DNA of 64,000 nucleotides, from the IMG/VR virus record IMGVR_UViG_3300034102_002786, positions 18,413 through 82,412 of that record. The stretch is one strand, 5' to 3'. This stretch comes from a virus (taxonomy: Duplodnaviria; Heunggongvirae; Uroviricota; Caudoviricetes). Shown one piece after another: positions 1 to 59,020 of this stretch (its first letter is position 1; each line of letters opens with the position of its first letter). Below the pieces are notes generated by a model. It was not told where the DNA came from. It saw nothing but the letters and a program-made list of their open reading frames with translations, and searched no databases. The position numbers and the translations under genes are program-made.

Positions 1-2
1 TC

Positions 3-1848: not shown

Positions 1849-1849
1849 T

Positions 1850-3234: not shown

Positions 3235-3235
3235 C

Positions 3236-4725: not shown

Positions 4726-4730
4726 AAACA

Positions 4731-5432: not shown

Positions 5433-5439
5433 TAAATGA

Positions 5440-7081: not shown

Positions 7082-7092
7082 AAACAAAAATT

Positions 7093-10662: not shown

Positions 10663-10663
10663 T

Positions 10664-11068
10664 ATGACAGAAAGAAAGTATTTACCTACATTAAGTGAAT
10701 TAGTTGACCGTTTAAGTATCGTTCAATTAAAAGAAGTATTCATTACCGAACATAAAGAAGAATACGCGGAAGAAATAAAAGCAATTGTGCATGATATTCA
10801 ATTGTATTTGGATGAAAGTAAAGAACCAATTACAGCTGAAACAATCAGAGCGATTATAGTTTTATCACAAATGAACTTACATATTTGGCATAACGAATCA
10901 AATTATCGTAAGGGAATTAAAGATGGTAATAATTTAGAATTAACACATGGATTAAATGGAATCCGTAATGTTGCTAAAAACAAAATTCAAGAAGTAATGG
11001 GTGGTAGAAAAGATTATAAGATTGATTGCTTAGCAGCAGAATTTAAAGATTGGGAAATTAGTTGGTAG
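10664..11068 (+). CDS. hypothetical protein
   Basis: 134-aa ORF in operon context. Confidence 0.5.
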   Translation: MTERKYLPTLSELVDRLSIVQLKEVFITEHKEEYAEEIKAIVHDIQLYLDESKEPITAETIRAIIVLSQMNLHIWHNESNYRKGIKDGNNLELTHGLNGIRNVAKNKIQEVMGGRKDYKIDCLAAEFKDWEISW

Positions 11069-11069
11069 T

Positions 11070-14427: not shown

Positions 14428-14428
14428 T

Positions 14429-15277
14429 ATGAATATAATTGTAACAGGAGGAGTTGGTTTTGTTGGAACTAATTTAGTAAAAAGGTTAAAAGAAGAAGGG
14501 CACAAAGTAATTGTAATAGATGATTATTCTGTTGGAGTGGTTGATAATCAAATTGAAGGAGTAAGATACCTTCCTATGAATGTAGAGCAAATTGATTTTA
14601 TCAAAGGCGATGAAGTTGATTTATGCTTTCACTTAGCAGCATTAAGTAGAATACAACCATCATTTGAAACTCCATCGGATTTCTTTAGAGTAAACGTAAG
14701 TGGTACTGAAGCTGTATGTGATTGGGCTAGAAAGTGGAATGTAAAAGTAGTATATAGTGGTTCATCTTCACAATGGCATGACCCATTTCAATCACCTTAC
14801 GCAATGTATAAAAAGTTAGGTGAGGATGTATGTAAGATGTATCGTAAAGTATTTGGAACTAACATTGAGATTGCAAGATTTTATAATGTGTATGGTCCAT
14901 ACGAAATTACTGATGGTAAGTGGGCAGCTGTAATTGGTAAGTGGAGAGGTCAATGTATAACACAAAAAGCAATAACTATTGTTGGTGACGGTAAACAACG
15001 TAGAGATTTCACTCATATTGATGATATTGTTGATGGATTAATTAAAATAGGATTTGGAACTGAAACACATGAAGATGCATGGGAGTTGGGAACTGGTTTT
15101 AACTATTCACTTAATGAGGTTGCTGATATGTTTGTTAAAAAGTTTGGCGTTGATAAAGTTTATATGCCTAACCAAAAAGGTAATTATAGAGAAACTTGTA
15201 GAGAAAATAACGATGCTTTGGAGAGATTAAATTGGAAACCAACCGATAAATTAAAAGATTATATAAATTCATTATGA
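14429..15277 (+). CDS. NAD-dependent epimerase/dehydratase (short SDR)
   Basis: IVTGGVGFVGTNLV Rossmann motif. Confidence 0.7.
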   Translation: MNIIVTGGVGFVGTNLVKRLKEEGHKVIVIDDYSVGVVDNQIEGVRYLPMNVEQIDFIKGDEVDLCFHLAALSRIQPSFETPSDFFRVNVSGTEAVCDWARKWNVKVVYSGSSSQWHDPFQSPYAMYKKLGEDVCKMYRKVFGTNIEIARFYNVYGPYEITDGKWAAVIGKWRGQCITQKAITIVGDGKQRRDFTHIDDIVDGLIKIGFGTETHEDAWELGTGFNYSLNEVADMFVKKFGVDKVYMPNQKGNYRETCRENNDALERLNWKPTDKLKDYINSL

Positions 15278-16176
15278 AAAAAAGAACCCTAATTTGTATC
15301 CATGTAATGCCATCCGAAATGGAAATGTTTGAAAGACTTATGATTCAAATGCATAAAGCCTTTAAATATCTTAATAACGATGATGATGTTACAATTAAAG
15401 CCACACTAAACCTAAATCCAAAATTAACAGATTGGGATAATAGCGAATACAAACAATCATATTTTGTAGCCAGATTTGGTGTTCTTTTTAATGGATTAAA
15501 AAATATAAATGAAATTATATTAGATACATCTTGTTGGGGAACTACACAACAAAAGAGAGAAAGTTATAAATTGGATTATGACCAATTTATATTTTGTGAT
15601 ACTGATATTCTGTTTCACGAACATATGTTACGATACCAATTGGATGTATCTTACAAATTAGATGGTATTTATTTATTATCTCCATCTTTACCAAAATGGT
15701 GGGATACTAGTTGGGACTACTTAACACATTCTGAATATTTAGATAAACCATTTGGATATGCAATAGATTCAAAAGAAGTTATTGAAAATACATACAATCA
15801 AAAAATTAATTTTATAAGTGCAAAGCAAATTCCAACACTTAAATTTGGATGTGGAATGCATACTTTATATTCTAAATCATTTTGGGAATTAGTAGATATT
15901 CCGGAATCATTTGGGGGATATGGGCCTGAAGATACATATGGGATGGAAGCCGGAAAGATAGCAATAAAATTAGGATACAATGTACAACAATTTGTATTAG
16001 ATGGGGTTTATATAACAGAGGATTATATTAATAGGGTACCTGAATTTGCTGATAAAATAAAACCAATAGATAAGAAAAAGGAGTTTTATGATAGGGCCTA
16101 TGATATAGCAAGACAAGAAATTTCAACATTCGCTACAAAATTAATTCAAAAAAATCAACCTAATCTTCAAATCTAA
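15274..16176 (+). CDS. hypothetical protein (last gene of the glycan operon)
   Basis: 300-aa ORF; no motif recognised. Confidence 0.5.
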   Translation: MKKRTLICIHVMPSEMEMFERLMIQMHKAFKYLNNDDDVTIKATLNLNPKLTDWDNSEYKQSYFVARFGVLFNGLKNINEIILDTSCWGTTQQKRESYKLDYDQFIFCDTDILFHEHMLRYQLDVSYKLDGIYLLSPSLPKWWDTSWDYLTHSEYLDKPFGYAIDSKEVIENTYNQKINFISAKQIPTLKFGCGMHTLYSKSFWELVDIPESFGGYGPEDTYGMEAGKIAIKLGYNVQQFVLDGVYITEDYINRVPEFADKIKPIDKKKEFYDRAYDIARQEISTFATKLIQKNQPNLQI

Positions 16177-48806: not shown

Positions 48807-48878
48807 TGTGGGGTAGAGCAGAGGTAGCTCGCAAGGCTCATAACCTTGAGGCCGTTGGTTCGAATCCTTCCCCCGCAA
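48807..48878 (+). tRNA. tRNA-Met-like (anticodon CAT), copy 1; the T-stem has two T-T mismatches
   Basis: Acceptor TGTGGGG/CCCCGCA, D-stem GAGC/GCTC, anticodon stem CAAGG/CCTTG with loop CTCATAA, T-loop TTCGAAT. The acceptor is identical to the tRNA at 52002. Confidence 0.55.
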
Positions 48879-48887
48879 CAAAAAAGA

Positions 48888-48921
48888 TTTGGTAGTTTGA
48901 AAAAATTATCGTATCTTTACA
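48888..48921 (+). promoter_or_regulatory. tandem promoter copy P2
   Basis: aaaaagaTTTGgtagtttgaaaaaattatcgTATCTTTAcaaagtt. Confidence 0.55.
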
Positions 48922-49040
48922 AAGTTAAGGTTGAAGCCATCAACTAATAAAACCGATTGAGTGACTCGTTAAACATTAGTTTCGTTAGAGTGAAAAGAAA
49001 CTACAAAGCCGGATACTTTAACTAACTAATTAAAAAAAGA

Positions 49041-49074
49041 TTTGGTAGTTTGAAAAAATTATCGTATCTTTACT
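49041..49074 (+). promoter_or_regulatory. tandem promoter copy P3
   Basis: aaaaagaTTTGgtagtttgaaaaaattatcgTATCTTTActaagatt. Confidence 0.55.
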
Positions 49075-49140
49075 AAGATTCAAAAATAAAGTAGTTGATT
49101 GGTTCGCCAGAAAACAAAATTGAGAATCTTTAAAAAAAGT

Positions 49141-49174
49141 TTTGGAAAATTGAAAAAGATTTCGTATCTTTACT
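49141..49174 (+). promoter_or_regulatory. tandem promoter copy P4
   Basis: TTTGgaaaattgaaaaagatttcgTATCTTTActctgttc. Confidence 0.5.
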
Positions 49175-50368
49175 CTGTTCTTAAAACAAAAGTTCTTTAA
49201 CATATTGAAGATACTACACATAGTAACCTTGTGTTACATAGTGTACGATGGCCGCCTATGGTCATTAAATAAACTACGAAAGTAGGATAAAGTGAATCAT
49301 TTGGTTAAATGATTTGCGGTTTGTAATCCGTTTAGGGTTATGAGCTTGAGTAGGCAAGTGAGATATTACTTGGGCTTTGTATGTGAGGGTAACACTGTAG
49401 CAGAAGAGTTTGGGTAACTGGGGGTATGTAGAACCTTCGGTTGAGTTCGGAAGAACAATAAGAATAACTCATAGAATTATTGTAAGACATAGAAAGCTAA
49501 TCCCTTTTTACTATTGCGTGATTCAATACCAAAGTGGTCTTGATAATCAAGCTATCCGAAAGGACGTAAGATAAGACTGTGTACGCGTGGTGGCGTTACT
49601 ATCCTTTAATGTGGGACACCAATCCCTATTAATGAAGATGACTTGAAGTATGGCGTTGAGATAACGCATTGGGTAGTTTAGTATTCTCTCGTTCAAAAGA
49701 TGGGGGAGCTGGTGATGGACCGCTACCTGAATCAATCTACAAACCAAAACTTTATATTTTCAATTTAGGTTTGAAAAACTATAATTAAACATAAAGCATA
49801 AGTGTCCATCAGTTGTGACCGAAAGGTGCATACATAGTTGGGAGTTGTTCCCAGCCATAAACGCCCGCAAGGTGGTTATGATTTTTACGAAAAGCTTATA
49901 GACCCGCAAGGTTGAATCAGTTCGGCAGGATTGAATAAGGGGAGTAGTAAGAGAGTAAGTTACAACTTTAAGAGTGGTTATACTTTACTAACCTGCATTG
50001 ACTGGTACATCTCAAAAGGGTGTGGAAACGAAAGGAATCAAAATAATCTTTCTAAAGCTAGTTATCCCAACGTGTATTCTCAACGTTTTTACTTTCTCAA
50101 TGGTTGTATATTGGTTCGATTCCAATAGAGAGAGCAAATTCATCCTGTAAGATGAATTATCGTGGTCTTTCTTTTACATAATGTTCACCTATTGAGAATA
50201 AAGAGTTATGTAGACCTAAAAGAACAAAACTAATGTAGACAGTATAGGCTGGTTTTTGTAAGTTTGACTGTTAATCCCTTATCAAATAGGGCTAAACGAA
50301 AATGGTTGACACGATAGATACCTGTGGTTAGGCAAGCGCTCGGAAAGTTCCCACCTTACAAAAAAACT

Positions 50369-50440
50369 TTCCATTTATGCGGTGTAAGTGTTACGGTAGC
50401 ACATTTCACATTCCAGTGAAAAGGAGAGGTTCAATTCCTT
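50369..50440 (+). ncRNA. tRNA-like element (pseudo-tRNA) with a 6-nt anticodon loop
   Basis: Acceptor TGCGGTG/CACCGCT (6 of 7 bp), T-arm AGAGG-TTCAATT-CCTTT, anticodon stem TTCAC/GTGAA with loop ATTCCA. Confidence 0.2.
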
Positions 50441-50505
50441 TCACCGCTCTACTAACAACTGAAAAGTTGTTCGTTTCATATCTTAATTTTTATTACAACT
50501 TAGAT

Positions 50506-50530
50506 GGGGGTGCTTCGGCATCCCCTATTT
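50506..50530 (+). terminator. rho-independent terminator with a UUCG tetraloop
   Basis: GGGGGTGC-TTCG-GCATCCCC is an 8-bp stem followed by TATTT. Confidence 0.55.
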
Positions 50531-50776
50531 AAGCCTGATGAAACTAACAACAATTCGGAAAAAATTATTTATATATACTTATTAATATAACAAAGTGATG
50601 AAAACTTTAACACTACATACAAATTGTTCGCAACCTACATTGAGAAATGAGTGGGCAGGCATTCGTATGTTTAGTACGATTAGTAATCCGGCAAACTTAG
50701 GCAAGGTGGATTATATTTGTACACAGTTAGAGGAAGCATCAGGTTGGTAATAGATTATACTTAAAACAACATAGAA

Positions 50777-50816
50777 AGACCTCTAACTGAATCAAATCGG
50801 TTAGAGGTTTTTTCGT
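50777..50816 (+). terminator. rho-independent terminator
   Basis: AGACCTCTAAC-(12-nt loop)-GTTAGAGGTTT followed by TTTTT; ends 6 nt before tRNA-Asn. Confidence 0.6.
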
Positions 50817-50821
50817 TTTAA

Positions 50822-50893
50822 GCTCCTTTGGCGCAGCGGTAGCGCAGCAGACTGTTAATCTGTTGGTCCTTGGTTCGAATCCAAGAGGGAGCG
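50822..50893 (+). tRNA. tRNA-Asn (GTT)
   Basis: Acceptor GCTCCTT/AGGGAGC, D GCGC/GCGC, anticodon loop CTGTTAA, T-arm CTTGG-TTCGAAT-CCAAG. Confidence 0.85.
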
Positions 50894-50926
50894 CAGTATA
50901 TGTTCTTTGACATATTGGGATAAGTT

Positions 50927-51001
50927 GGAAGTTTAGCTCAGCTGGTTTAGAGCATCACGTTTACACCGTGAGGGTCATAGGTTCGAATCCTGTAACTTCC
51001 A
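50927..51001 (+). tRNA. tRNA-Val (TAC)
   Basis: Acceptor GGAAGTT/AACTTCC, D GCTC/GAGC, anticodon arm TCACG-TTTACAC-CGTGA, T-loop TTCGAAT. Confidence 0.85.
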
Positions 51002-51106
51002 CAACATGTTCCATACACATTCCTACAATCTCTCAGTTGAAAGCTGTTGTAGGATTGAGTGAGTAGCACGATAGGGCTATCAAATGTGAGTTATATGGAA
51101 CGCCAT

Positions 51107-51188
51107 TGGGGTATCGCATAGTGGCAATTGCGGCTGACTGTAAATCAGCTCTCATTTGAGTTCGGCGGTTCGAGTCCGTCTACCCCAA
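51107..51188 (+). tRNA. tRNA-Tyr (GTA), class II with a long variable arm
   Basis: Acceptor TGGGGTA/TACCCCA, anticodon arm GCTGA-CTGTAAA-TCAGC, 14-nt variable arm, T-arm GGCGG-TTCGAGT-CCGTC. Confidence 0.8.
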
Positions 51189-51192
51189 CACC

Positions 51193-51265
51193 GGTGATGA
51201 AGCTAACTAGGTAGAAGCGAAAGACTGAAAATCTTTAGGAAGTGGTTCGATACCACTCATTACCA
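51193..51265 (+). tRNA. tRNA-Phe (GAA)
   Basis: Acceptor GGTGATG/CATTACC, anticodon arm AAAGA-CTGAAAA-TCTTT, T-arm AGTGG-TTCGATA-CCACT. Confidence 0.8.
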
Positions 51266-51287
51266 CTTAACAATTAAAAAAACAATT

Positions 51288-51497
51288 ATGGCAGATTTTA
51301 ATCATGGAGTTGGTACATTAATAAAAGAGTTGGTGACACCAAAAGGAAAAATTGAAATGGGTAGTAAAGGAATAGTAACTGCGTATCTACCAGAAGATGG
51401 TAAGTTCGCAGTAGATTTTGGAAATGGACAATGGATAACATTTGATAAAATATCATTGGACGAATATTGTAAAATAGAATTAGAAGATAACAATTAA
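51288..51497 (+). CDS. hypothetical protein embedded in the tRNA array
   Basis: 69-aa ORF between tRNA-Phe and tRNA-Lys. Confidence 0.4.
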   Translation: MADFNHGVGTLIKELVTPKGKIEMGSKGIVTAYLPEDGKFAVDFGNGQWITFDKISLDEYCKIELEDNN

Positions 51498-51537
51498 AAA
51501 CAAATACTATGGAAAGTGACAAGTATGACAAAAGTCA

Positions 51538-51611
51538 GACCTCTTAGCTCAGTTGGTTAGAGCACTATACTTTTAATATAGGAGTCAATGGTTCGAATCC
51601 ATTAGGGGTCA
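51538..51611 (+). tRNA. tRNA-Lys (TTT)
   Basis: Acceptor GACCTCT/AGGGGTC, D GCTC/GAGC, anticodon arm CTATA-CTTTTAA-TATAG, T-arm AATGG-TTCGAAT-CCATT. Confidence 0.85.
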
Positions 51612-51686
51612 CAAAAAGTTCCGAACTTAATATTGAGTTAAAATAATGATGTACACATTATACGATAGGATGGAAACCTATCACAT

Positions 51687-51760
51687 TGGAGTATAGCTCA
51701 GTTGGTTAGAGCGCTAATCTGATACGTTAGATGCCGCAGGTTCGAATCCCGCTACTCCAA
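51687..51760 (+). tRNA. tRNA-Ile (GAT)
   Basis: Acceptor TGGAGTA/TACTCCA, D GCTC/GAGC, anticodon arm CTAAT-CTGATAC-GTTAG, T-loop TTCGAAT (one A-C mismatch in the T-stem). Confidence 0.75.
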
Positions 51761-51765
51761 CACAC

Positions 51766-51836
51766 ATGGGTATAGTGAAATGGTATCATGCCGGTCTCCA
51801 AAACCGTTGTTGTGGGTTCGAATCCTACTACCCGTG
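51766..51836 (+). tRNA. tRNA-Trp (CCA)
   Basis: Acceptor ATGGGTA/TACCCGT, D GTGA/TCAT, anticodon loop CTCCAAA, T-arm GTGGG-TTCGAAT-CCTAC. Confidence 0.7.
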
Positions 51837-51841
51837 CAATT

Positions 51842-51914
51842 GGCTCTTTAGTGAAATGGATTATCACACAACGCTACGGACGTTGGGTTAAAGGTTCGAA
51901 TCCTTTAGGGGCTA
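51842..51914 (+). tRNA. tRNA-Arg (ACG)
   Basis: Acceptor GGCTCTT/AGGGGCT (three G-U pairs), D GTGA/TCAC, anticodon arm CAACG-CTACGGA-CGTTG, T-arm AAAGG-TTCGAAT-CCTTT. Confidence 0.7.
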
Positions 51915-51922
51915 CATAATAA

Positions 51923-51993
51923 GGCGAGTTGTTAGAGTGGTGATATGAAGTTCTGCAAAAACTTTTACACAGGTTCGAATCCTGTACTCGCCT
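51923..51993 (+). tRNA. tRNA-Cys (GCA)
   Basis: Acceptor GGCGAGT/ACTCGCC, anticodon arm AAGTT-CTGCAAA-AACTT, T-arm ACAGG-TTCGAAT-CCTGT; the D-arm pairs weakly. Confidence 0.75.
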
Positions 51994-52001
51994 CTTGATA
52001 T

Positions 52002-52073
52002 TGTGGGGAGATTAGGTAATCCGTTTGGTCTCATAAGCCAGATATTCAGGTTCAATTCCTGGCCCCGCAACCA
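52002..52073 (+). tRNA. tRNA-Met-like (CAT), copy 2, with a reduced D-arm and an encoded 3' CCA
   Basis: Acceptor TGTGGGG/CCCCGCA, anticodon loop CTCATAA, T-arm TCAGG-TTCAATT-CCTGG, ends A-CCA. Candidate initiator or Ile-lysidine tRNA. Confidence 0.55.
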
Positions 52074-52076
52074 AAT

Positions 52077-52151
52077 GGTGTTTGAAGCATTAAGGTGATG
52101 CGCTAGTTTGTGGAGCTAGATAAGACGGTTCGATACCGTCCTTACACCCCA
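52077..52151 (+). tRNA. tRNA-His (GTG) with the extra 5' G(-1) and an encoded CCA
   Basis: G-1 plus acceptor GTGTTTG/CTTACAC (two T-T mismatches), D GCAT/ATGC, anticodon arm CTAGT-TTGTGGA-GCTAG, T-arm GACGG-TTCGATA-CCGTC, discriminator C. Confidence 0.65.
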
Positions 52152-52153
52152 AC

Positions 52154-52243
52154 GGAGAGTTGCCTGAGTGGCCGAAAGGGCCGGTTTGCTAAACCGTTGT
52201 ACGGAGTTAATCTGTACCGAGAGTTCGAATCTCTCACTCTCCG
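52154..52243 (+). tRNA. tRNA-Ser (GCT), class II
   Basis: Acceptor GGAGAGT/ACTCTCC, anticodon loop TTGCTAA, long variable arm TGTACGGAGTTAATCTGTACC, T-arm GAGAG-TTCGAAT-CTCTC. Confidence 0.8.
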
Positions 52244-52252
52244 CATAAATAA

Positions 52253-52286
52253 TTTGGATAATTGAAAAATTATTCGTATATTTGTA
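52253..52286 (+). promoter_or_regulatory. Bacteroidetes-type promoter inside the array (-33 TTTG at 52253-52256, -7 TATATTTG at 52277-52284)
   Basis: aaTTTGgataattgaaaaattattcgTATATTTGtataac. Confidence 0.55.
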
Positions 52287-52306
52287 TAACTTAAAACATA
52301 AAAGAG

Positions 52307-52735
52307 ATGAACGTAAAACAGGCTTTAAAAGCAAAGAACAAACTTACCACTCAAATCAAAGCGTTATATGAAATCGCTAAGAATCATAACTCAATTGAGG
52401 AAGGTAACCTGCGTAGATATTCCGTAAATGGAGTATTGAATGAAGCAGAAGAATTGACCAAAGAGTTGGTTGATTTAAAAACTAAAATCCATCAGGCTAA
52501 CCAACCTGTATATGGTAAGATTTTCCTAATGGCAGAGCTAAAAGGAAAGGTAAAGCAACTTAAAGGAATGAGTTGTGAAGAAGGTAAAGTAACCGAAAGA
52601 TTTGGTTCAATCCAATCGGTGAAAGAAGTAGAAATTAATATCGCTCAAAAAGACCAAATGATAAAAGATTTGGAAAATCAAATTGAGGGATTGCAGGATG
52701 AGTTGGATGTGTATAACGCAACTACAACCATCTAA
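52307..52735 (+). CDS. hypothetical coiled-coil protein embedded in the tRNA array
   Basis: 142-aa ORF downstream of the internal promoter. Confidence 0.5.
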   Translation: MNVKQALKAKNKLTTQIKALYEIAKNHNSIEEGNLRRYSVNGVLNEAEELTKELVDLKTKIHQANQPVYGKIFLMAELKGKVKQLKGMSCEEGKVTERFGSIQSVKEVEINIAQKDQMIKDLENQIEGLQDELDVYNATTTI

Positions 52736-52947
52736 TAAAAAATTGGGAAGATGTGAGTGATGAAATTTGTTTTTATTATTATCTTGCAAATCTGACGCAT
52801 TGCCAATCAGTATTAAACGATGATGATTAAATAATTTCAACTCTCAAATCTTGATAGAGTCAACATTCGCGCAATGTCAACACACTCAAAACTCTTATTA
52901 ATTGGTAATCATATTAACTTATTGATTCACCACATCAACCCATCTAT

Positions 52948-53019
52948 GCTCGGTTCGTCTAACGGTTAGGACACCACCCTTTCACGGTGGTGATACGGGT
53001 TCGATTCCCGTACCGAGTA
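52948..53019 (+). tRNA. tRNA-Glu (TTC)
   Basis: Acceptor GCTCGGT/ACCGAGT, D GTCT/GGAC, anticodon arm CCACC-CTTTCAC-GGTGG, T-arm ACGGG-TTCGATT-CCCGT; resembles bacterial tRNA-Glu throughout. Confidence 0.85.
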
Positions 53020-53113
53020 CAATAGCATACATCACAATCAGTCAAGCCGTATTTAGCTGTTAGTGTATGTTAGATAAGAGAAAGAAACGGCTGGGACATT
53101 CTCTTATCAAAAC

Positions 53114-53185
53114 GCTTCCAAAGCATTGCAGGCGATGCGCTTGACTTGTAATCAAGATAATTCGGTTCGATTCCGGATGGAAGCT
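53114..53185 (+). tRNA. tRNA-Thr (TGT)
   Basis: Acceptor GCTTCCA/TGGAAGC, D GCAT/ATGC, anticodon arm CTTGA-CTTGTAA-TCAAG, T-arm TTCGG-TTCGATT-CCGGA. Confidence 0.85.
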
Positions 53186-53260
53186 CAAACTAATTCATTG
53201 AGGTGTTTGTCAACCAGTGCATGACATGGATGGTGCGGATAAAGGTGAATTAGTGATTAA

Positions 53261-53334
53261 GGATTGTTGGTGAAGTTGGTTATCATGCCACCCTGTCACG
53301 GTGGAGTTCACGGGTTCGAGTCCCGTACAATCCG
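53261..53334 (+). tRNA. tRNA-Asp (GTC)
   Basis: Acceptor GGATTGT/ACAATCC, D GTGA/TCAT, anticodon arm CCACC-CTGTCAC-GGTGG, T-arm ACGGG-TTCGAGT-CCCGT. Confidence 0.85.
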
Positions 53335-53582
53335 CAAAAGGTATAATTAGATTGTATATGCAATTAGCTCGGCAATCTTTAACACCTGCAGATGTGAGGT
53401 GATTATACTTTTAAGTTGTTTCATACACTTAACACACCTAGTAACAAGGTAAGGCACATAGAGTTACATAGAGGCATGGAGTAATTACCCAACGCCACAT
53501 TCGGACTACAAATGTAGATTAGGTTCAGACGTTGTAGAGAAAGAGATGTTAAGAGTAAACTTGCAAGTTGAAACAACTGTTT

Positions 53583-53659
53583 GGTTCGGTAGCTCAGTTG
53601 GATAGAGCAACAGCCTTCTAAGCTGTGGGTCAAAGGTTCGAATCCTTTCCGAATCACCA
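53583..53659 (+). tRNA. tRNA-Arg (TCT) with an encoded CCA
   Basis: Acceptor GGTTCGG/CCGAATC, D GCTC/GAGC, anticodon arm ACAGC-CTTCTAA-GCTGT, T-arm AAAGG-TTCGAAT-CCTTT, then A-CCA. Confidence 0.85.
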
Positions 53660-53674
53660 AATAAAAAGTAAGAC

Positions 53675-54121
53675 ATGAAAAATGTAACTTTAGTAACATG
53701 CTTCTTTTTGTTATTCATTCCGCATAATATAAATAACTCTGAAAGGAGTGAGGAAGAAGTTGTGGATGAAATAATAGAAAAGAAAAAGTTACCTTATGAT
53801 TTAGTGACCGTAACAACGTACACTGTATCTAAAGGTGAAACCGATTCAACTCCATTAATTACCGCAAGTGGTTACAAATTGGATAGCCTTAATCCAAAGA
53901 AACAAAAGGTAATAGCAATAAGCAGAGACCTGAAACGAAAGTATAAGTTTGGACAAAAAGTAAGAGTGAAGGGTGCTGGTAAATTAGATGGTGTATATAC
54001 CGTCAGAGATTTAATGGCGAAGAGATGGACAAAAAAGATTGATATATTAATTAACCCAGATGATAAAGGAACAAAAATCAGAAAGGTTAAGTTATATAAT
54101 GTAGCAAACATAGGGAATTAG
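53675..54121 (+). CDS. secreted 3D-domain protein (MltA/YocH-like cell-wall-binding or lytic fold)
   Basis: N-terminal signal-like segment, then VTVTTYTVSKGETDSTPLITASGYKL...VRVKGAGKLDGVYTVRD, which follows the 3D-domain pattern (TAYT..E.D..P.TASG). Its 3' end overlaps tRNA-Pro by 10 nt. Confidence 0.6.
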   Translation: MKNVTLVTCFFLLFIPHNINNSERSEEEVVDEIIEKKKLPYDLVTVTTYTVSKGETDSTPLITASGYKLDSLNPKKQKVIAISRDLKRKYKFGQKVRVKGAGKLDGVYTVRDLMAKRWTKKIDILINPDDKGTKIRKVKLYNVANIGN

Positions 54122-54185
54122 CGTAGCCCGGTATCGCGCTTGGTTTGGGACCAAGAGGTCGTCAGTTCGAATCTGGCATTCCCTA
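54112..54185 (+). tRNA. tRNA-Pro (TGG)
   Basis: Acceptor AGGGAAT/ATTCCCT, anticodon arm CTTGG-TTTGGGA-CCAAG, T-arm GTCAG-TTCGAAT-CTGGC. Confidence 0.8.
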
Positions 54186-54218
54186 CGAAAAGATTTGGAT
54201 AAGTGAAATATAAAATAA

Positions 54219-54446
54219 ATGGCAAAGTATATTAAAACCGCATTCATACGAGATTTAGAAATCAAATTGCAAAATGAAGAAATTTCATATGGTAAAGCGA
54301 TTGAACTTATTCAAGAAGAAGTTATTGAAAATTATAAAAAAGATAATACCTTATTGAAAAAAATAAAAAGATTATTAGGTGAGGTTTGGCTAGGATTTAA
54401 GATAGCTGAAGGAAACCGAAATAAATCTCAATGGGGTAAATTTTAA
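54219..54446 (+). CDS. hypothetical protein embedded in the tRNA array
   Basis: 75-aa ORF. Confidence 0.4.
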   Translation: MAKYIKTAFIRDLEIKLQNEEISYGKAIELIQEEVIENYKKDNTLLKKIKRLLGEVWLGFKIAEGNRNKSQWGKF

Positions 54447-54447
54447 A

Positions 54448-54482
54448 TTAGGATAATTAAAATATTATTCGTATCTTTGTAT
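54448..54482 (+). promoter_or_regulatory. promoter inside the array (-7 TATCTTTG at 54472-54479; degenerate -33)
   Basis: ggataattaaaatattattcgTATCTTTGtatag. Confidence 0.45.
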
Positions 54483-54504
54483 AGTTATTTGAAATAGTAT
54501 CGCC

Positions 54505-54590
54505 GCCGAGGTGATGGAATGGTAGACATGAAAGACTTAAAATCTTTTGAGCAGAAATAGCTCGTGTGGGTTCGACTCCCATCCTCGGTA
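54505..54590 (+). tRNA. tRNA-Leu (TAA), class II
   Basis: Acceptor GCCGAGG/CCTCGGT, D-arm TG-ATGG-AATGGTAG-ACAT, anticodon arm AAAGA-CTTAAAA-TCTTT, 18-nt variable arm, T-arm GTGGG-TTCGACT-CCCAT. Confidence 0.8.
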
Positions 54591-54600
54591 CGTTCAATTA

Positions 54601-54674
54601 GGGGAAGTAGCTCAGTTGGCTAGAGCATCTGCCTTGCACGCAGAGGGTCATGGGTTCGACTCCCTTCTTCTCCA
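54601..54674 (+). tRNA. tRNA-Ala (TGC) with the G3:U70 identity pair
   Basis: Acceptor GGGGAAG/CTTCTCC (G3-T70 wobble), D GCTC/GAGC, anticodon arm TCTGC-CTTGCAC-GCAGA, T-loop TTCGACT. Confidence 0.8.
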
Positions 54675-54678
54675 CATC

Positions 54679-54752
54679 GGACCTATAGCTCATTCGGTTA
54701 GAGCAACTGACTCATAATCAGTAGGTGCTTGGTTCGATTCCAAGTGGGTCCA
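54679..54752 (+). tRNA. tRNA-Met (CAT), copy 3, canonical elongator-like
   Basis: Acceptor GGACCTA/TGGGTCC, D GCTC/GAGC, anticodon arm ACTGA-CTCATAA-TCAGT, T-arm CTTGG-TTCGATT-CCAAG. Confidence 0.85.
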
Positions 54753-54760
54753 CAAAAATT

Positions 54761-54833
54761 GCGGAAGTAGCTCATTCGGTAGAGCACAACCTTGCCAAGG
54801 TTGGGGTGGCCAGTTCGAGCCTGGTCTTCCGCT
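54761..54833 (+). tRNA. tRNA-Gly (GCC)
   Basis: Acceptor GCGGAAG/CTTCCGC, D GCTC/GAGC, anticodon arm CAACC-TTGCCAA-GGTTG, T-arm GCCAG-TTCGAGC-CTGGT. Confidence 0.85.
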
Positions 54834-54893
54834 CAAAAGGACTTTAATGGTTGAAGTACAAAACCGAAGTAGGTTAGTCCCACCTACACAAAA

Positions 54894-54966
54894 GCGAGAG
54901 TAGCTCATTTGGTAGAGCGGTAGCCTTCCAAGCTTCAGGTGGCCAGTTCGAGCCTGGTCTCTCGCT
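54894..54966 (+). tRNA. tRNA-Gly (TCC)
   Basis: Acceptor GCGAGAG/CTCTCGC, D GCTC/GAGC, anticodon loop CTTCCAA (one mismatch in the stem), T-arm GCCAG-TTCGAGC-CTGGT. Confidence 0.75.
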
Positions 54967-55025
54967 CAAGTGGGCCTGTTAGTATTAGGCCGCAAGAAGA
55001 ATAGATGTTTTTCAATTACTACAAA

Positions 55026-55053
55026 CTCAAGCATTAATTTGCTTGGGTTTTAT
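55026..55053 (+). terminator. hairpin plus T-tract (weak terminator or attenuator) before tRNA-Gln
   Basis: CTCAAGCA-ttaatt-TGCTTGGG followed by TTTTATT. Confidence 0.35.
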
Positions 55054-55125
55054 TGCCCGATGATGTAATGGTTAGCATCACAGATTTTGATTCTGTTCGT
55101 ATTGGTTCGAGTCCAGTTCGGGTAA
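55054..55125 (+). tRNA. tRNA-Gln (TTG)
   Basis: Acceptor TGCCCGA/TCGGGTA, anticodon arm ACAGA-TTTTGAT-TCTGT, T-arm ATTGG-TTCGAGT-CCAGT. The track's TTG-start ORF at 55053 overlaps this tRNA and is rejected. Confidence 0.75.
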
Positions 55126-55136
55126 CAAAAAATATT

Positions 55137-55598
55137 ATGAAATATAAAATTTCATTTGAAGATATAAATAAAATAAAAGAGGTTTACAAAAATGGTAATG
55201 ATACTAGATATGTACCTAGCAATTCAGATGATATAAATAGTCCATATTTCATAAAAAGTGAAAGATTTTTTTGTGATTTAAAAAATGATGAATTACTAGA
55301 TATTATAAAAAATAATATACCAATAGATGATGTTAATGAATGTATAACATCAATTCATTATATAAATTACAAAAAAGGTGAAGGGGCAAAAGAACATAGT
55401 GATATTGGTGCATCTAATAAAACTTTTATTTTCATTCTAAACGATGAATTTGAAGGTGGTGAATTTCATTTGGATAAAAATTATGTTCCATTAGTGAAAG
55501 GAGATATAATAGCTTTTAATGGAAATCAGCTACACTTAGTTAAACCAATTAAAAAAGGAAATAGAGAGGTTTTAGTTGTCTTTCTAAAAAATAAATAA
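55137..55598 (+). CDS. 2OG-Fe(II) oxygenase superfamily protein (prolyl-4-hydroxylase/PKHD-like)
   Basis: HSD...H facial triad candidates (EHSDIG, then LHLVKP) and a C-terminal RE.LVVF strand. Start set at the ATG after tRNA-Gln. Confidence 0.65.
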   Translation: MKYKISFEDINKIKEVYKNGNDTRYVPSNSDDINSPYFIKSERFFCDLKNDELLDIIKNNIPIDDVNECITSIHYINYKKGEGAKEHSDIGASNKTFIFILNDEFEGGEFHLDKNYVPLVKGDIIAFNGNQLHLVKPIKKGNREVLVVFLKNK

Positions 55599-55625
55599 AA
55601 ATTTTAATAATTAAAAACAAATGTT

Positions 55626-55889
55626 ATGGGATTATTTTGGACGTATTATGTAATTTGTTTCATCTATTGTCTTGTAATGTCAATACGAAAATGGAATAGA
55701 GATGTAAGAGCAGGTGGTTTAGGTATATCACCTGGTTTAGATTCTTTGGCTCTATTGATTATGTGTTGGATATTAGCACCAGTAGATATATTCTTAACTT
55801 GGGTTAGGGTATATAAAGAAGCAGAAGAAGCAAGAAGAAATCAAAGTACTTTAGATACTAAAGACTTTAAAGATGAAAAAGTATTCTAA
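55626..55889 (+). CDS. small membrane protein
   Basis: 87-aa ORF with two TM helices. Confidence 0.45.
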   Translation: MGLFWTYYVICFIYCLVMSIRKWNRDVRAGGLGISPGLDSLALLIMCWILAPVDIFLTWVRVYKEAEEARRNQSTLDTKDFKDEKVF

Positions 55890-55906
55890 TTATTAGAGTA
55901 CTAAAC

Positions 55907-55991
55907 AGAGAGTTGGCCGAGTGGTTGATGGCGGCAGTCTTGAAAACTGTTTTACTGAAAGGTAACGGGGGTTCGAATCCCTCACTCTCTG
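55907..55991 (+). tRNA. tRNA-Ser (TGA), class II
   Basis: Acceptor AGAGAGT/ACTCTCT, 3-bp D-stem GCC/GGC, anticodon arm GCAGT-CTTGAAA-ACTGT, 16-nt variable arm, T-arm GGGGG-TTCGAAT-CCCTC. Confidence 0.8.
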
Positions 55992-55996
55992 CACAT

Positions 55997-56143
55997 TGTA
56001 AGGTGTTGGAATTGGCAGACAAGCCCTCCTGTCTCGGGGGTGGTGAGCACGAAATAGGTTAGTAATATGGGGTAGACCACCATCCTGCAGGAATGTGTTA
56101 CTAACTGAATCGCACTATGGTGGTTCGAATCCATCTCTTACAG
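55997..56143 (+). tRNA. 147-nt tRNA-like gene (Leu-like D-arm) carrying a ~78-nt insertion between the anticodon-arm region and the T-arm; anticodon unresolved; possibly intron-containing or disrupted
   Basis: Acceptor TGTAAGG/TCTTACA (7 bp), D-arm TG-TTGG-AATTGGCAG-ACAA is almost identical to the adjacent tRNA-Leu genes, candidate anticodon arm CCCTC-CTGTCTC-GGGGG, T-arm GGTGG-TTCGAAT-CCATC. The insert 56041-56118 contains a 9-bp hairpin GGTTAGTAA...TTACTAACT and the palindrome TCCTGCAGGA. Confidence 0.4.
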
Positions 56144-56148
56144 CAAAG

Positions 56149-56230
56149 GCCCCGTTGATGGAATTGGTAGACATGCCAGACTTAGGATCTGGTGCTGAGA
56201 AGCATAAGAGTTCGAGTCTCTTATGGGGCA
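56149..56230 (+). tRNA. tRNA-Leu (TAG), class II
   Basis: Acceptor GCCCCGT/ATGGGGC, D-arm TG-ATGG-AATTGGTAG-ACAT, anticodon arm CCAGA-CTTAGGA-TCTGG, 13-nt variable arm, T-arm AAGAG-TTCGAGT-CTCTT. Confidence 0.8.
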
Positions 56231-56246
56231 CTCAAAAACAAAATTT

Positions 56247-56702
56247 ATGAAGTACAAAAAGCTTTATGGTAGAGAAGAATTTGAACTTATCCCTTATGTT
56301 AAAAACTATTTTGAAAACAATGAAAATATTGAACTTCTTATCGGATGTGATTCGCAAAACTTTGCCGATAAAACAATATATGCCGTTGTTGTGGCTTTGT
56401 ACCATAACGGAAAAGGAGCTCATGTACTTTATAGAAGATGGAAAGCAGATAGAGAACCAACCCGTTCAGTAAGATTATTAAACGAAGTTTGGTATGCAAT
56501 TGAAGCAGCTGAATATTTAAGAGAAGCTGGTATTCCAAAACCAAAGTGGATTGATATTGATTTGAATCCAGATCCACGCTTTAAATCAAATGAAGTGTTC
56601 AGACAAGCAGTTGGTATGGTAGAAGGTATGGGGTATGAAGTACGATATAAAACATTAGGTCCAATTGCAACTTATGCAGCTGACCACTTAGTAAAAATAT
56701 AA
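56247..56702 (+). CDS. hypothetical protein
   Basis: Start moved to the ATG at 56247, because the track start at 56223 lies inside tRNA-Leu. Confidence 0.5.
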   Translation: MKYKKLYGREEFELIPYVKNYFENNENIELLIGCDSQNFADKTIYAVVVALYHNGKGAHVLYRRWKADREPTRSVRLLNEVWYAIEAAEYLREAGIPKPKWIDIDLNPDPRFKSNEVFRQAVGMVEGMGYEVRYKTLGPIATYAADHLVKI

Positions 56703-56703
56703 T

Positions 56704-57303
56704 ATGAGTTACTCATCTGTTCAAGACTTATTTATTAGTATTCCTCAAAAAGTATTACTTGTTGGAAACGGTGATATTAAAAATATGGGAAGTATAATAG
56801 ATAGTTATGAATATGTAATTCGTTTCAATGATTTCCAATTGGATGGACATGAAGAAAATGCAGGTACTAAAATATCTGCATTATCTTTGCATTGCAGTGA
56901 CTTTTCTCACAAACATACAAAGTATTTAGAAAAAAATTATATAAAGTATAGTGGTAGTGTTCCTATATTTACAACATCACCAAAGTATCCAAACAGCAAA
57001 GATGATATAATACATATACAATCTGGAACTAAACTATTGGATGTATCACTTCCTTTGATGATTAGCCCAACATTTAGACTTTCATCGGGAGGAACTTTAG
57101 CATTAAATTTATCTTTGTTCTTTAATAAAGAAGTACATTTAGTTGGGTTTAATTTTTTCTTAAAATCAGGTCATTACTACGATAAAGATTTTACAAACGA
57201 AGAATTTTGGAAAAAAATTATGGGAACTGATGTTGTTGAACATGATGGTGAGTTTGAAAAAAGAATACTAACTAATTTTAAGAACATTCACATAATTGAT
57301 TAA
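56704..57303 (+). CDS. sialyltransferase-like glycosyltransferase (GT29/GT42-like sialyl-motif L)
   Basis: VLLVGNGDIKNMGSIIDSYEYVIRFNDFQLDGHEENAGTKIS follows the sialyl-motif L pattern (V.GNG..L.....ID..D.V.R.N...). Confidence 0.5.
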   Translation: MSYSSVQDLFISIPQKVLLVGNGDIKNMGSIIDSYEYVIRFNDFQLDGHEENAGTKISALSLHCSDFSHKHTKYLEKNYIKYSGSVPIFTTSPKYPNSKDDIIHIQSGTKLLDVSLPLMISPTFRLSSGGTLALNLSLFFNKEVHLVGFNFFLKSGHYYDKDFTNEEFWKKIMGTDVVEHDGEFEKRILTNFKNIHIID

Positions 57304-58597
57304 TATGAAAATAGTTGCGTTTTTACCTGTAAAGGGAACAAGTTCAAGAATAGAAAACAAAAATATAAAATTGTTGGATGGTAAACCACTATTCTTACAT
57401 ACATTAGAAAAACTTTTACAATGTGATATTATAGACGAAGTTTATTTAGATACTGAATCCAATGAGGTAATTGGTATGGCATCTCATTTAAATCATTTTG
57501 TATTAAAGAGAGACCATTCTTTGGCTGATAATAAAACCGATGGTAATAAATTATTTATGAATGAAGTTAGGCAAGTGGATGCCGATATATACATTCAGAT
57601 TTTATGTACATCACCTTTTATAGAAACCAATACAATTAAATTAGCAATAAATCAAATAGTACATTCCAAATATGATTCGGCTGTTTTAGTTAGAGATGAA
57701 AAATTATATACGTGGACAGATGGTAAGCCTGTGTATGATATAAACAATATACCTAACAGTGTTGATTTGGAAAGTACAACAATTGAAACTATGGGATTAT
57801 ACATAGTAAAAAAAGAATGTGCTATACAAACTCAAAGAAGAATAGGTGATAATCCATTTTTAGTTAAAGCAAGTATAATCGAAGCCATTGATGTTAATTG
57901 GCCTGAAGATTTTGAATTGGCAAATCTTATAGCAGCTGGTTTGAGAGAGAAAGATAGAATCTTATTGGATAACCTAAAAAGTCAATTGAATAGTTCGATG
58001 CTATCGGATTTGTTAGATGATTTGGGATATTCAACTATAATAAACGGATTACAACCAAACATAATTGATGCTAAGATTTTTGGTAGAGCTAAAACTTTGA
58101 AGATACGAAAGTTAAAAGAAGGTGATAGTTACAAAGGAATATACAATGCATTACATAGTTATAATACAATAGTACCAAATGATGTTATAATTGTTGAAAA
58201 CGAAATATCAGATTACGCATACTTTGGTGAACTAAATGCTAACTTAGGAATACGTTCTGGTGCGGTTGGTGCAATTGTTGGTGGGGTTACTAGAGATTCA
58301 GCTGATGTAAAGAAATTAGGGTTTCCTGTATTTGCTAAAGGTAATAAATGTATTGATGTTAGAAGGCGTGCAACTTTGGATGGAATAAATGTTCCAATAC
58401 AAATAGAAGGTGTTAGGATACTACCCGGTGATTTAGTATTTGCTGATAACGAAGGTATTGTTGTTATACCAAAAGAAATTGAGAAAAAATTATTGGCTAT
58501 GGCTATGGAAGTTTGTATGAAAGAAAAAAGTGTATTGTTGGATATAGCTAATGGTATAGGAGTTGATGAACTTGTAAAACGAAATGGAGAATTCTAA
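57296..58597 (+). CDS. fusion of a CMP-N-acylneuraminate (or CMP-nonulosonate/KDO) cytidylyltransferase domain with a C-terminal RraA-family domain
   Basis: The N-terminal KIVAFLPVKGTSSRIENKNIKLLDGKPLF is the NeuA/KdsB signature. The C-terminal GIRSGAVGAIVGGVTRDSADVKKLGFPVFAKG...GDLVFADNEGIVVIPKE is the RraA/MenG-like fold. Confidence 0.7.
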   Translation: MINMKIVAFLPVKGTSSRIENKNIKLLDGKPLFLHTLEKLLQCDIIDEVYLDTESNEVIGMASHLNHFVLKRDHSLADNKTDGNKLFMNEVRQVDADIYIQILCTSPFIETNTIKLAINQIVHSKYDSAVLVRDEKLYTWTDGKPVYDINNIPNSVDLESTTIETMGLYIVKKECAIQTQRRIGDNPFLVKASIIEAIDVNWPEDFELANLIAAGLREKDRILLDNLKSQLNSSMLSDLLDDLGYSTIINGLQPNIIDAKIFGRAKTLKIRKLKEGDSYKGIYNALHSYNTIVPNDVIIVENEISDYAYFGELNANLGIRSGAVGAIVGGVTRDSADVKKLGFPVFAKGNKCIDVRRRATLDGINVPIQIEGVRILPGDLVFADNEGIVVIPKEIEKKLLAMAMEVCMKEKSVLLDIANGIGVDELVKRNGEF

Positions 58598-59020
58598 ATG
58601 GATATTACTAAAGAAGTTATAAATCATTTGGCTAATAATATAAAAACCGAAATAGCAGTTTCACCTTTAGACGGTGTTGGTGTATTTGCCATCAAAGATA
58701 TTAAGAAAGGTGAAGATGTGTTTCCAATTTGGGAAGGTGAAACTGGAATTTATGTTGTACCTAATAGTGATTTGGATAAAATACCAAAATCGGTGCAACA
58801 TTTACTTCACAAATATTTTATCAACGAAGAATGTGGATATAAGATAATACGATTATTCAAAGGATTAAATTTCTTATTCCACGGATTCAGTTATTGTAAT
58901 TCAGCACACCCTAATATAGAAAATGTAAACATTGATATAAATGGGATAGCACTACGAGATATAAAAGCAGGCGAAGAAATTTTAGAATGGTACACAGAGA
59001 ATATAAACTTAGAAAATTAA
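58598..59020 (+). CDS. SET-domain protein (putative protein-lysine methyltransferase)
   Basis: HGFSYCNSAHPN (resembling NHSC.PN) followed by IALRDIKAGEEILEWY is the SET C-terminal signature. Confidence 0.5.
   Translation: MDITKEVINHLANNIKTEIAVSPLDGVGVFAIKDIKKGEDVFPIWEGETGIYVVPNSDLDKIPKSVQHLLHKYFINEECGYKIIRLFKGLNFLFHGFSYCNSAHPNIENVNIDINGIALRDIKAGEEILEWYTENINLEN

Follow-up and report, generated by a model that had tools for sequence, protein, structure and literature searches.

A candidate cassette for a Kdo-family acidic sugar in a huge phage: a cytidylyltransferase–RraA fusion beside a minimal GT29-family glycosyltransferase

The stretch of DNA analysed here, hereafter called the window, comprises 64,000 nucleotides (positions 18,413 to 82,412) of the virus record IMGVR_UViG_3300034102_002786 (Caudoviricetes). 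All of its genes lie on the plus strand at a guanine-plus-cytosine content of about 32%, and its best protein match was a 484-kb uncultured phage; the window was therefore read as a piece of a huge phage. The subject of this study is a pair of adjoining genes within a block of four (56223–59020) that is tightly packed, with 0–1 nucleotide from each stop to the next start. The first, at 56704–57303 (+), encodes a minimal glycosyltransferase of family GT29 with 199 amino acids (aa), and the second, at 57305–58597 (+), encodes a protein of 430 aa plus stop in which a cytidylyltransferase (CT) domain is followed by an RraA-fold domain. Both open reading frames (ORFs) were present on the plus strand at the positions given in an earlier note, which had been made from the sequence alone. 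The GT29-like gene terminates with TAA (57301–57303), followed by a single T and the ATG at 57305, which is probably the start of the fusion since it gives the 430 aa that match all database homologues; an alternative TTG lies at 57296. PHROGs holds no family for either protein, and neither a DNA nor a protein match to the CT–RraA fusion was found among the isolated phages of INPHARED.

The 199-aa protein matched Pfam Glyco_transf_29 (PF00777) in two stretches with 46.5 bits against a cut-off of 23, and the same domain was present in all 17 of its homologues. Labelled according to the definitions of the sialyl-motifs (L, S, III as H-Y-[YWF]-[ED], and VS as H-x4-E), the sequence contains motif L at L18–G23 plus V38–N42 (LLVGNG...VIRFN), motif S at R125–G129 through G148–F149 (RLSSG...GF), motif III at H157-Y-Y-D160, and motif VS, H180-x4-E185, as H180-DGEF-E185. 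All four were invariant or nearly so in the alignment of the 17-member family (A2). When its AlphaFold (AF2) model (predicted local distance difference test score, pLDDT, 86.4) was searched with Foldseek, the first 19 matches were without exception structures of GT29 (probability 1.0; E from 1e-7 to 9e-4; query-normalised template-modelling score, TM, 0.45–0.57). The best of these were mammalian, namely ST6GALNAC2, ST3Gal-I and ST8SiaIII, with the GT42 enzymes Cst-I and Cst-II ranking behind GT29, and small viral GT29-like proteins were also among the structural matches. The gene is rare: a word search returned 17 homologues, 13 representative clusters were obtained at E <= 1e-30, and a metagenome scan with the GT29 alignment yielded 4 short loci only. 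Every close copy lies on a phage-like contig and adjoins a gene for a synthetase of cytidine-monophosphate (CMP)-activated ulosonic acids. We propose the 199-aa enzyme as the transferase for the CMP-activated sugar, a CMP-ulosonic acid donor being implied by this adjacency.

The N-terminal CT domain of the fusion (residues 1–199; 57305–57901, +) has the fold of NeuA/KdsB-type CMP-ulosonate synthetases and matched Pfam CTP_transf_3 (PF02348) with 64.9 bits (cut-off 22.6; residues 11–138). The motifs for binding of cytidine triphosphate, LPxKGxSxRxxxKN and QxLxTSPF, are conserved; P8, K10, G11, S13, R15, K19, N20, Q98, T102, S103 and P104 were invariant in the fusion-family alignment (A1) and aligned with NeuA structures. 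In NCBIfam, PseF gave 60.3 bits and thus lay below its equivalog cut-off of 205.7, and the best model of KdsB, the CMP synthetase for Kdo (3-deoxy-D-manno-octulosonate), gave 38.6 bits against 193 over the N-terminal half only. Foldseek returned target-normalised TM values of 0.82 for the CMP-Kdn synthetase 9T4Z, 0.76–0.81 for NeuA structures and 0.60–0.66 for KdsB. Taken alone, the CT domain is ambiguous on the type of sugar, and it is the genomic context that decides.

The C-terminal domain (residues 226–430; 57980–58594, +) matched Pfam RraA-like (PF03737) with 96.8 bits (cut-off 24.5; residues 236–390) and is of the RraA-fold class II pyruvate-aldolase type. Its putative catalytic residues are E309, R330, D331, D334 and E407, of which E309/R330/D331 and E407, together with the RD-x2-[DE] motif, were invariant across the fusion family, as was an Arg cluster formed by R268, R317, R353 and R355. 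In the sequence alignment with 3NOJ, the HMG/CHA aldolase (for 4-hydroxy-4-methyl-2-oxoglutarate and 4-carboxy-4-hydroxy-2-oxoadipate), D102/R123/D124 fell on E309/R330/D331, and the invariant E407 lay one position off E199 in the pairwise alignment. For that enzyme, roles have been assigned to catalytic Arg-123, to Asp-124 and Glu-199 as metal ligands, and to the acidic residue 102 (PMC5065237). Structural matches in Foldseek were 3K4I, 5X15, 3NOJ and YER010C, with target-normalised TM values of 0.82–0.86 for 3K4I and 5X15 and 0.69 for 3NOJ. The equivalog level of enterobacterial RraA proper was not reached (PRK09372, 41.4 bits against 136; TIGR02998, 19.3 against 241). Because it fails the KdsB, PseF, LigK and RraA equivalog tests, the predicted assignment of the fusion was kept at superfamily level for both domains. 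The retained residues, together with the replacement of this domain by other aldolases described below, support its prediction as an aldolase-type catalyst. A role as a Kdo-8-phosphate phosphatase was also considered for this domain and dropped, since the phosphatase KdsC co-occurs with the fusion in seven loci and the fold has no such precedent.

The fusion proved to be genuine. A total of 1,506 homologues were found at E <= 0.001, and all 120 homologues among the matches listed share the same two-domain architecture at 60–100% identity, with 60–80% identity across phyla among them. An identical protein has been assembled independently in one NCBI metagenome and in one Logan run. In the AF2 model (pLDDT 89.4), one unbroken helix of residues 200–225 (57902–57979, +; DSSP; block pLDDT 80–90) bridges the domains, and this linker segment is conserved in A1. 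No split version with a CT-only and an RraA-only gene was seen among 84 bacterial loci. A frameshift, which the earlier note had named as what would refute its reading, or another assembly artefact was thereby ruled out by the shared architecture, the independent identical assemblies, the continuous linker helix and the lack of split versions. The domain calls of that note stood up in Pfam hidden Markov model (HMM) searches, above the cut-offs given above, and its guess of an aldolase-like step for the RraA partner gained backing from the conserved catalytic residues and from the swap for HpcH/HpaI and DmpG-type aldolases. Its description of the fusion as unusual does not hold: an alignment-based scan of species-representative genomes placed this large and highly conserved family in at least 144 species of Proteobacteria, Bacteroidota, Firmicutes, Acidobacteriota and Verrucomicrobiota, and the settings in which the fusion occurs are capsule loci, flagellin islands and phages. 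Agathobacter ruminis and Vibrio chagasii are among the bacteria with an orthologue. In viral contigs, a scan with the single fusion protein gave nothing and an alignment-based scan gave 4 loci. Databases list the fusion under generic names, for example 'RraA family protein' or 'cytidylyltransferase domain-containing protein'.

The neighbours of the fusion were scanned in the 84 bacterial loci. KpsF/KdsD was found in 33, mostly immediately upstream of the fusion, KdsA in 18, KdsC in 7, and transferases of the DUF115/Maf-like type in 9. In Agathobacter ruminis, a Gram-positive bacterium with no lipopolysaccharide (LPS), KpsF (302 bits), KdsA (421 bits) and KdsC (142 bits) all scored above their curated cut-offs, with the fusion in the place of KdsB. 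The Mucilaginibacter operon KpsF–KdsA–fusion–KdsC likewise presents a full four-step Kdo pathway with the fusion at the KdsB position, and the nearest non-phage relatives, at 79% and 74% identity, stand in the orders fusion–KpsF–KdsA and fusion–KpsF. The fusion was also found in group-2-type capsule loci with KpsMT, KpsC/S and KpsD. In Lysobacteraceae (L112, 6253–11302; also L020–L023), it lies within a flagellar locus, at a site with flgL on one side and the flagellin gene on the other, which is likely a flagellin-glycosylation island that would use this sugar; L022 is from the cultured strain Cognatiluteimonas weifangensis WF-2. In L112, the fusion comes after two genes, one for an 810-aa protein containing a haloacid-dehalogenase-like (HAD) motif and one for a 440-aa protein that matches KpsC/KpsS weakly. 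Large HAD-containing proteins flank the fusion in 17 of the 84 loci (among them L003, 11321–13864, and L113, 6486–9989). They are 670–1,170 aa long, carry an N-terminal HAD-like FDxFDTL motif, mostly lack a clear Pfam family, and may act as polymerases or transferases for the sugar, perhaps with a phosphatase built in. Two Lachnospiraceae-type loci hold more than one relevant gene set. In L077 (3540–6535), a second set consists of a CT, a SIS isomerase, a paralogue resembling 3-deoxy-D-arabino-heptulosonate-7-phosphate synthase I-beta (30% identity to KdsA) and a KdsC-like phosphatase, which, next to the fusion-plus-KdsA set, may serve a distinct pathway to a heptulosonate or another ulosonate; in L067 (11272–13013), the fusion is accompanied by a separate CT directly followed by a DmpG-like aldolase, making two CT–aldolase pairs.

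With a NeuB probe that had been validated against a solved enzyme and is able to detect pseudaminic acid synthase, no NeuB-type synthase was detected in the window, in the 8–10 kb around the fusion at the 84 bacterial loci, or among the viral loci. Since KpsF, KdsA and KdsC are the neighbours, no NeuB lies near any fusion, and a true KdsB occurs in sister cassettes, the sugar was assigned to the Kdo family, and the genes are probably a cassette for an eight-carbon, Kdo-family CMP-sugar and not for sialic acid. Of the sugars put forward in the earlier note, the KDO-type option thus fits, and the CMP-nonulosonate or sialyl reading was not borne out; its suggestion to look for NeuB/NeuC-like genes elsewhere came out negative, as Pfam and NCBIfam showed neither in the glycan locus at 1–16 kb and the probe detected no NeuB in the rest of the window. 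That the pair activates and transfers a nonulosonate (N-acetylneuraminic acid (Neu5Ac), legionaminic acid, pseudaminic acid or Kdn), a nine-carbon sugar whose synthesis genes would lie elsewhere, in the phage or its host, appears very improbable. It would agree with PseF, NeuA and CMP-Kdn synthetase as the best profile and structure matches of the CT, with GT29 as the sialyltransferase family, and with the opening of the window, where a 2-epimerase fragment is followed by GNAT and DegT-like genes. That fragment, however, is WecB-like and thus of the non-hydrolysing type, the PseF and NeuA scores are far under their equivalog cut-offs, no NeuB, PseI or LegI homologue turned up in the window, near the fusion at any of the 84 bacterial loci, or among the viral loci, and the neighbours are Kdo-pathway genes, with true KdsB in the sister cassettes. 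Phosphonate chemistry (CMP-phosphonates, HMGL-like synthases) was set aside as well: no phosphoenolpyruvate (PEP) mutase appeared in the annotated neighbourhoods, which were not specifically searched for it, and the transferases are of the ulosonate type.

Across related phage cassettes, the GT29-like gene (48–72% identity) keeps its place while the aldolase/CT partner changes. The CT–RraA fusion stands beside it in the window and in contigs L001, L002 and L007; a mini-HAD phosphatase and a DmpG-like aldolase fused to a true KdsB do so in L009–L011, L098–L100 (146–270 kb phage contigs) and L115; and an HpcH/HpaI aldolase, a mini-HAD phosphatase and a separate CT do so in L012 and L013. The KdsB part of the DmpG-like–KdsB fusion in L010 scored 282 bits against a cut-off of 255, and the DmpG-like partner retains the metal motifs DCTLRDG (DxTLRDG) and HTHDN (HxH). 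This fusion, too, belongs to a large family, all 120 homologues among the matches listed having the same architecture; in INPHARED it was matched via its separate halves only. Class II pyruvate aldolases come in three structurally distinct folds, represented by the RraA-fold HMG/CHA aldolase, by HpaI and by DmpG; each of these enzymes stabilises the pyruvate enolate and decarboxylates oxaloacetate (PMC5065237). As the aldolase folds are swapped while the transferase stays orthologous, the selected property would be class II pyruvate-aldolase chemistry, and this exchange of one convergent aldolase module for another is a new observation that can be put to the test. The transferase slot varies as well, in that viral contigs L014–L017 carry a DUF115/Maf-like transferase instead of GT29 directly beside the CT–RraA fusion. 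In the T4-like phage contigs L119 and L120 (124–160 kb), one unit comprises GT2, DmpG-like–KdsB, FkbM, mini-HAD and MptE-like transferase genes, and a second, complete in L119, comprises GT29, 2-hydroxyacid dehydrogenase, CT and KdsA-like genes.

Taking these observations together, we favour the reading that the two genes form a cassette to produce and attach a CMP-activated 3-deoxy-2-ulosonic acid belonging to the Kdo family, and that the huge phage captured this cassette from bacterial polysaccharide loci. In the first step, the RraA-fold domain, as a metal-dependent pyruvate-aldolase-type catalyst, would act on the C3–C4 bond of a keto-acid sugar, most plausibly by joining pyruvate, or oxaloacetate with loss of CO2, to host arabinose-5-phosphate to give a Kdo-8-phosphate-type acid. 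A phosphatase would then strip the 8-phosphate, this being a host enzyme in the present phage and the mini-HAD in the sister cassettes; the N-terminal CT domain would couple the sugar to CMP; and the minimal GT29 enzyme would move the sugar from the CMP-sugar onto a phage-specified acceptor. Domain identities, conserved catalytic motifs, gene neighbourhoods and the modular replacement are observed; which sugar is made, in which direction and on which substrate the aldolase works, and what serves as acceptor are inferred. As the best explanation as a whole, the cassette with these proposed steps is given a probability of roughly 0.4. That the aldolase is what builds the sugar, with oxaloacetate decarboxylation as the probable drive and the phosphatase and the CT as the pull, is put forward tentatively, at somewhat less than an even chance.

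Several observations weigh against this proposal. A bona fide KdsA is kept beside the fusion in 9 of 10 Firmicutes loci, and KdsA would be redundant if the RraA-fold domain made Kdo-8-phosphate. A true KdsB and the fusion share one operon in L057 and L025, so the product may not be plain CMP-Kdo, and in L119 and L120 a KdsA-plus-CT set and an aldolase–KdsB set occur together. With arabinose-5-phosphate as substrate, the fused domains would catalyse non-consecutive steps, and no phosphatase gene lies beside the cassette in this phage. The CT domain is below every NCBIfam equivalog cut-off and structurally nearer to NeuA and CMP-Kdn synthetases than to KdsB; its metal motif is D196-V-N198 (57890–57898) in every fusion member, and that of the mouse and Neisseria enzymes is D-I-D. 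Finally, literature searches found no published characterisation of the CT–RraA fusion. In the metal motif, for which the comparison with the mouse and Neisseria enzymes was made by profile search, the second metal-binding Asp of the Neisseria pair D209/D211 is replaced by Asn in all fusion members, and the stand-alone CTs in L012 and L067 keep D-I-D. This is a family-specific change of a catalytic metal ligand, and Asn198 may still bind metal.

Part of this evidence would suit a different role, namely that the aldolase-type domain remodels Kdo already made by KdsD, KdsA and KdsC, for example through C4 epimerisation by retro-aldol cleavage and re-addition or through dehydration, with the fused CT trapping the new sugar as a CMP derivative and the GT29 enzyme transferring an undescribed Kdo derivative. 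Such a role would account for KpsF, KdsA and sometimes KdsC being kept beside the fusion in Gram-positive loci, for the true KdsB in the operons of L057 and L025, for the flagellar island using the fusion though the cell has KdsB, and for L119 and L120 carrying both the KdsA-plus-CT set and the aldolase–KdsB fusion. The fused domains would then be consecutive, with irreversible CMP activation presumably pulling an unfavourable equilibrium, and the family-specific Asp-to-Asn change and the non-KdsB character of the CT would suit an altered sugar. The RraA-family enzyme FlDet, moreover, dehydrates/decarboxylates a 2-keto-3-deoxy sugar acid (PMC8563752). We nevertheless consider remodelling unlikely: the CT of a sister cassette is a high-scoring KdsB, which suggests ordinary Kdo, and three unrelated folds would less readily converge on an epimerase-like role than on plain aldol condensation. 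An aldolase acting on free Kdo would also tend to destroy it, as at the concentrations found in cells the equilibrium favours cleavage (Kdo aldolase, EC 4.1.2.23), and we know of no natural 4-epi-Kdo or comparable product. A literature search on Kdo aldolase found no gene identity.

The position of the fusion in the Mucilaginibacter operon, where it stands for KdsB, raises a further alternative: the fusion could be a capsule- or phage-specific CMP-Kdo synthetase analogous to KpsU, in which the RraA domain has an accessory or regulatory role as an oligomerisation scaffold, a metabolite sensor, a helper with the anomer or with ring opening, or a factor that, in the phage, modulates the host's RNase E. 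The group-2-type capsule loci pair KpsF with the fusion as E. coli pairs KpsF with KpsU, and the RraA fold does include true RNase E regulators. On the other hand, the aldolase catalytic residues are invariant across phyla, the domain is swapped for two other catalytic pyruvate-aldolase folds and not for other scaffolds, and KdsB and the fusion occur together in one operon. Against the E. coli-type RraA model, the domain scores far below the cut-off (41 against 136 bits), and the fusion family lies in glycan loci of phyla with very different RNA degradosomes. An accessory role is accordingly regarded as distinctly unlikely.

Beyond the window, a more general and rather doubtful proposal can be framed, in which the coupling of a CMP-ulosonate synthetase to a class II pyruvate aldolase points to a so far unrecognised step in the biosynthesis of octulosonic acids, either a PEP-independent route to Kdo-8-phosphate that pyruvate or oxaloacetate would drive, or the formation of a new Kdo derivative such as a C4 epimer. 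Three convergent folds, fused in either order or encoded next door, would serve this step, and its product would be placed on capsules, flagellins and huge-phage glycans in many phyla, including Gram-positive gut Lachnospiraceae without LPS. Kdo biosynthesis is textbook chemistry and an antibiotic target, and the conserved fusion suggests that part of it is still to be discovered. If the aldolase builds the sugar, a PEP-independent way to Kdo exists; if it remodels Kdo, an undescribed acidic sugar would be present on capsules, flagella and phage-specified glycans, including those of Gram-positive gut bacteria. Huge and T4-like phages would thus have exchangeable cassettes for making, activating and transferring acidic sugars, centred on a minimal GT29 enzyme, which at 199 aa may also offer a compact scaffold for glyco-engineering.

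The pair is flanked within the block by an upstream gene at 56223–56702 (+) for an RNaseH_like protein (PF04308/DUF458, Pfam 68.4 bits; phrog_11311), ending 1 nucleotide before the GT29-like gene, and by a downstream gene at 58598–59020 (+) for a 140-aa SET-domain protein (Pfam SET, 43 bits), whose start abuts the fusion's stop (TAAATG). The synteny of the former is kept in the related phage contig L007, where an FkbM-type methyltransferase gene is inserted between it and the GT29-like gene, and the SET-domain (lysine methyltransferase-type) gene directly 3' of the fusion is kept in L001, L002 and L007. None of the other partners seen elsewhere was found in the window, neither KpsF/SIS (tblastn and HMM scan) nor KdsA, KdsC, mini-HAD, HpcH or DmpG-like genes (HMM scan).

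The glycan locus at 1–16176 appears oriented toward fucose, heptose and N-acetylmannosamine, and contains no CTP_transf_3, NeuB or NeuC gene by Pfam and NCBIfam. The earlier note suggested that the glycan made by this locus may be what receives the sugar. It comprises WecB-like, Fcl-like, GT11, three FkbM methyltransferase, HldE-kinase-like and GT2 genes, and a bPGM-HAD gene fused to a nucleotidyltransferase. The WecB-like ORF (51–671, 206 aa) matches the C-terminal part of its profile only, and the DegT-type aminotransferase ORF (3236–3868, 210 aa) matches its family in the first ~70 residues only; in both cases the gene may be truncated, split or of an unusually short form. A 796-aa collagen-repeat protein at 18219–20609 is a candidate acceptor, and its combination with a 2-oxoglutarate-Fe(II) oxygenase and the glycan cluster brings to mind giant viruses and their glycosylated collagen-like fibres. 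The oxygenase ORF (2OG-FeII_Oxy_3; 55053–55598) has a listed TTG start that overlaps tRNA-Gln (55054–55126), so the gene must begin further downstream; the gene call in L001 is 153 aa. That tRNA belongs to an array of 27 tRNAs (48807–56231) covering most amino acids, with three tRNA-Met and an aberrant anticodon loop in that at 50378–50449. MoxR-type ATPases and an SPFH protein are also encoded in the window.

Compared with known systems, the fusion takes the place of KdsB or KpsU in the KdsD–KdsA–KdsC–KdsB or KpsF-plus-KpsU pathway, with which it has the CTP_transf_3 fold and the capsule context in common. It differs in its CT, which with 39 bits against a cut-off of 193 is no KdsB equivalog and is structurally nearer to NeuA, in its extra, catalytic-looking aldolase domain, and in sometimes sharing an operon with a true KdsB. 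By analogy, the GT29 enzyme and the fusion would work together as KdsB does with a Kdo transferase or NeuA with a sialyltransferase. The bifunctional NeuA of E. coli K1 and group B Streptococcus joins a CT to a C-terminal SGNH-type O-acetyl esterase and acts on a nine-carbon sugar; it resembles the fusion as a CMP-ulosonate synthetase with a second, sugar-editing catalytic domain, but its partner is an esterase and not an aldolase fold. The HMG/CHA aldolase (LigK/ProA, 3NOJ) has the same fold, essential Arg-Asp pair and acidic metal ligands as the RraA domain of the fusion. Pairwise, the two resemble each other little, with 51 bits in the sequence comparison and 25% identity when the structures are aligned. 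Against the LigK equivalog model, the score is far below the cut-off (65 against 304.5 bits), and the invariant D-V-R-x-R-A motif of the fusion family has no counterpart in 3NOJ. LigK/ProA belongs to aromatic-degradation loci, whereas the domain of the fusion is joined to a cytidylyltransferase and lies in glycan loci. FlDet of Flavobacterium is an RraA-family 2-keto-3-deoxy-hexarate dehydratase/decarboxylase (PMC8563752); compared by description, it likewise applies the RraA fold to a 2-keto-3-deoxy sugar acid, but it is a stand-alone catabolic enzyme with other chemistry than that proposed for the fusion.

On the transferase side, typical eukaryotic GT29 members have type II membrane topology, a stem and a disulfide between motifs L and S. 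The phage protein has in common with GT29 sialyltransferases the Pfam assignment, all four sialyl-motifs and a GT-A-variant fold, and differs from the eukaryotic enzymes in being phage-encoded and cytosolic, without membrane anchor or stem, as its sequence has no N-terminal hydrophobic segment. It also has no Cys at the motif-L or motif-S positions, so that, on inspection of the sequence against the eukaryotic pattern, the cysteines of these motifs are missing. At 199 aa in total it is smaller than the catalytic domains of the solved GT29 enzymes, which span ~270–320 aa. The Maf/DUF115 (MptE-like) proteins, which fill the transferase slot beside the fusion in L014–L017 and in Lachnospiraceae loci, are of another family than the GT29-like gene and are not present in the window; Maf enzymes are reported to transfer Kdo, as well as Neu5Ac, to flagellin (bioRxiv 10.1101/2020.06.03.131540). 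Among plant enzymes, the GT29 member RCKT1/MGP2 is the putative CMP-beta-Kdo transferase of rhamnogalacturonan II (PMC11288761), and it thus provides a precedent within GT29 for Kdo, rather than sialic acid, as the donor sugar.

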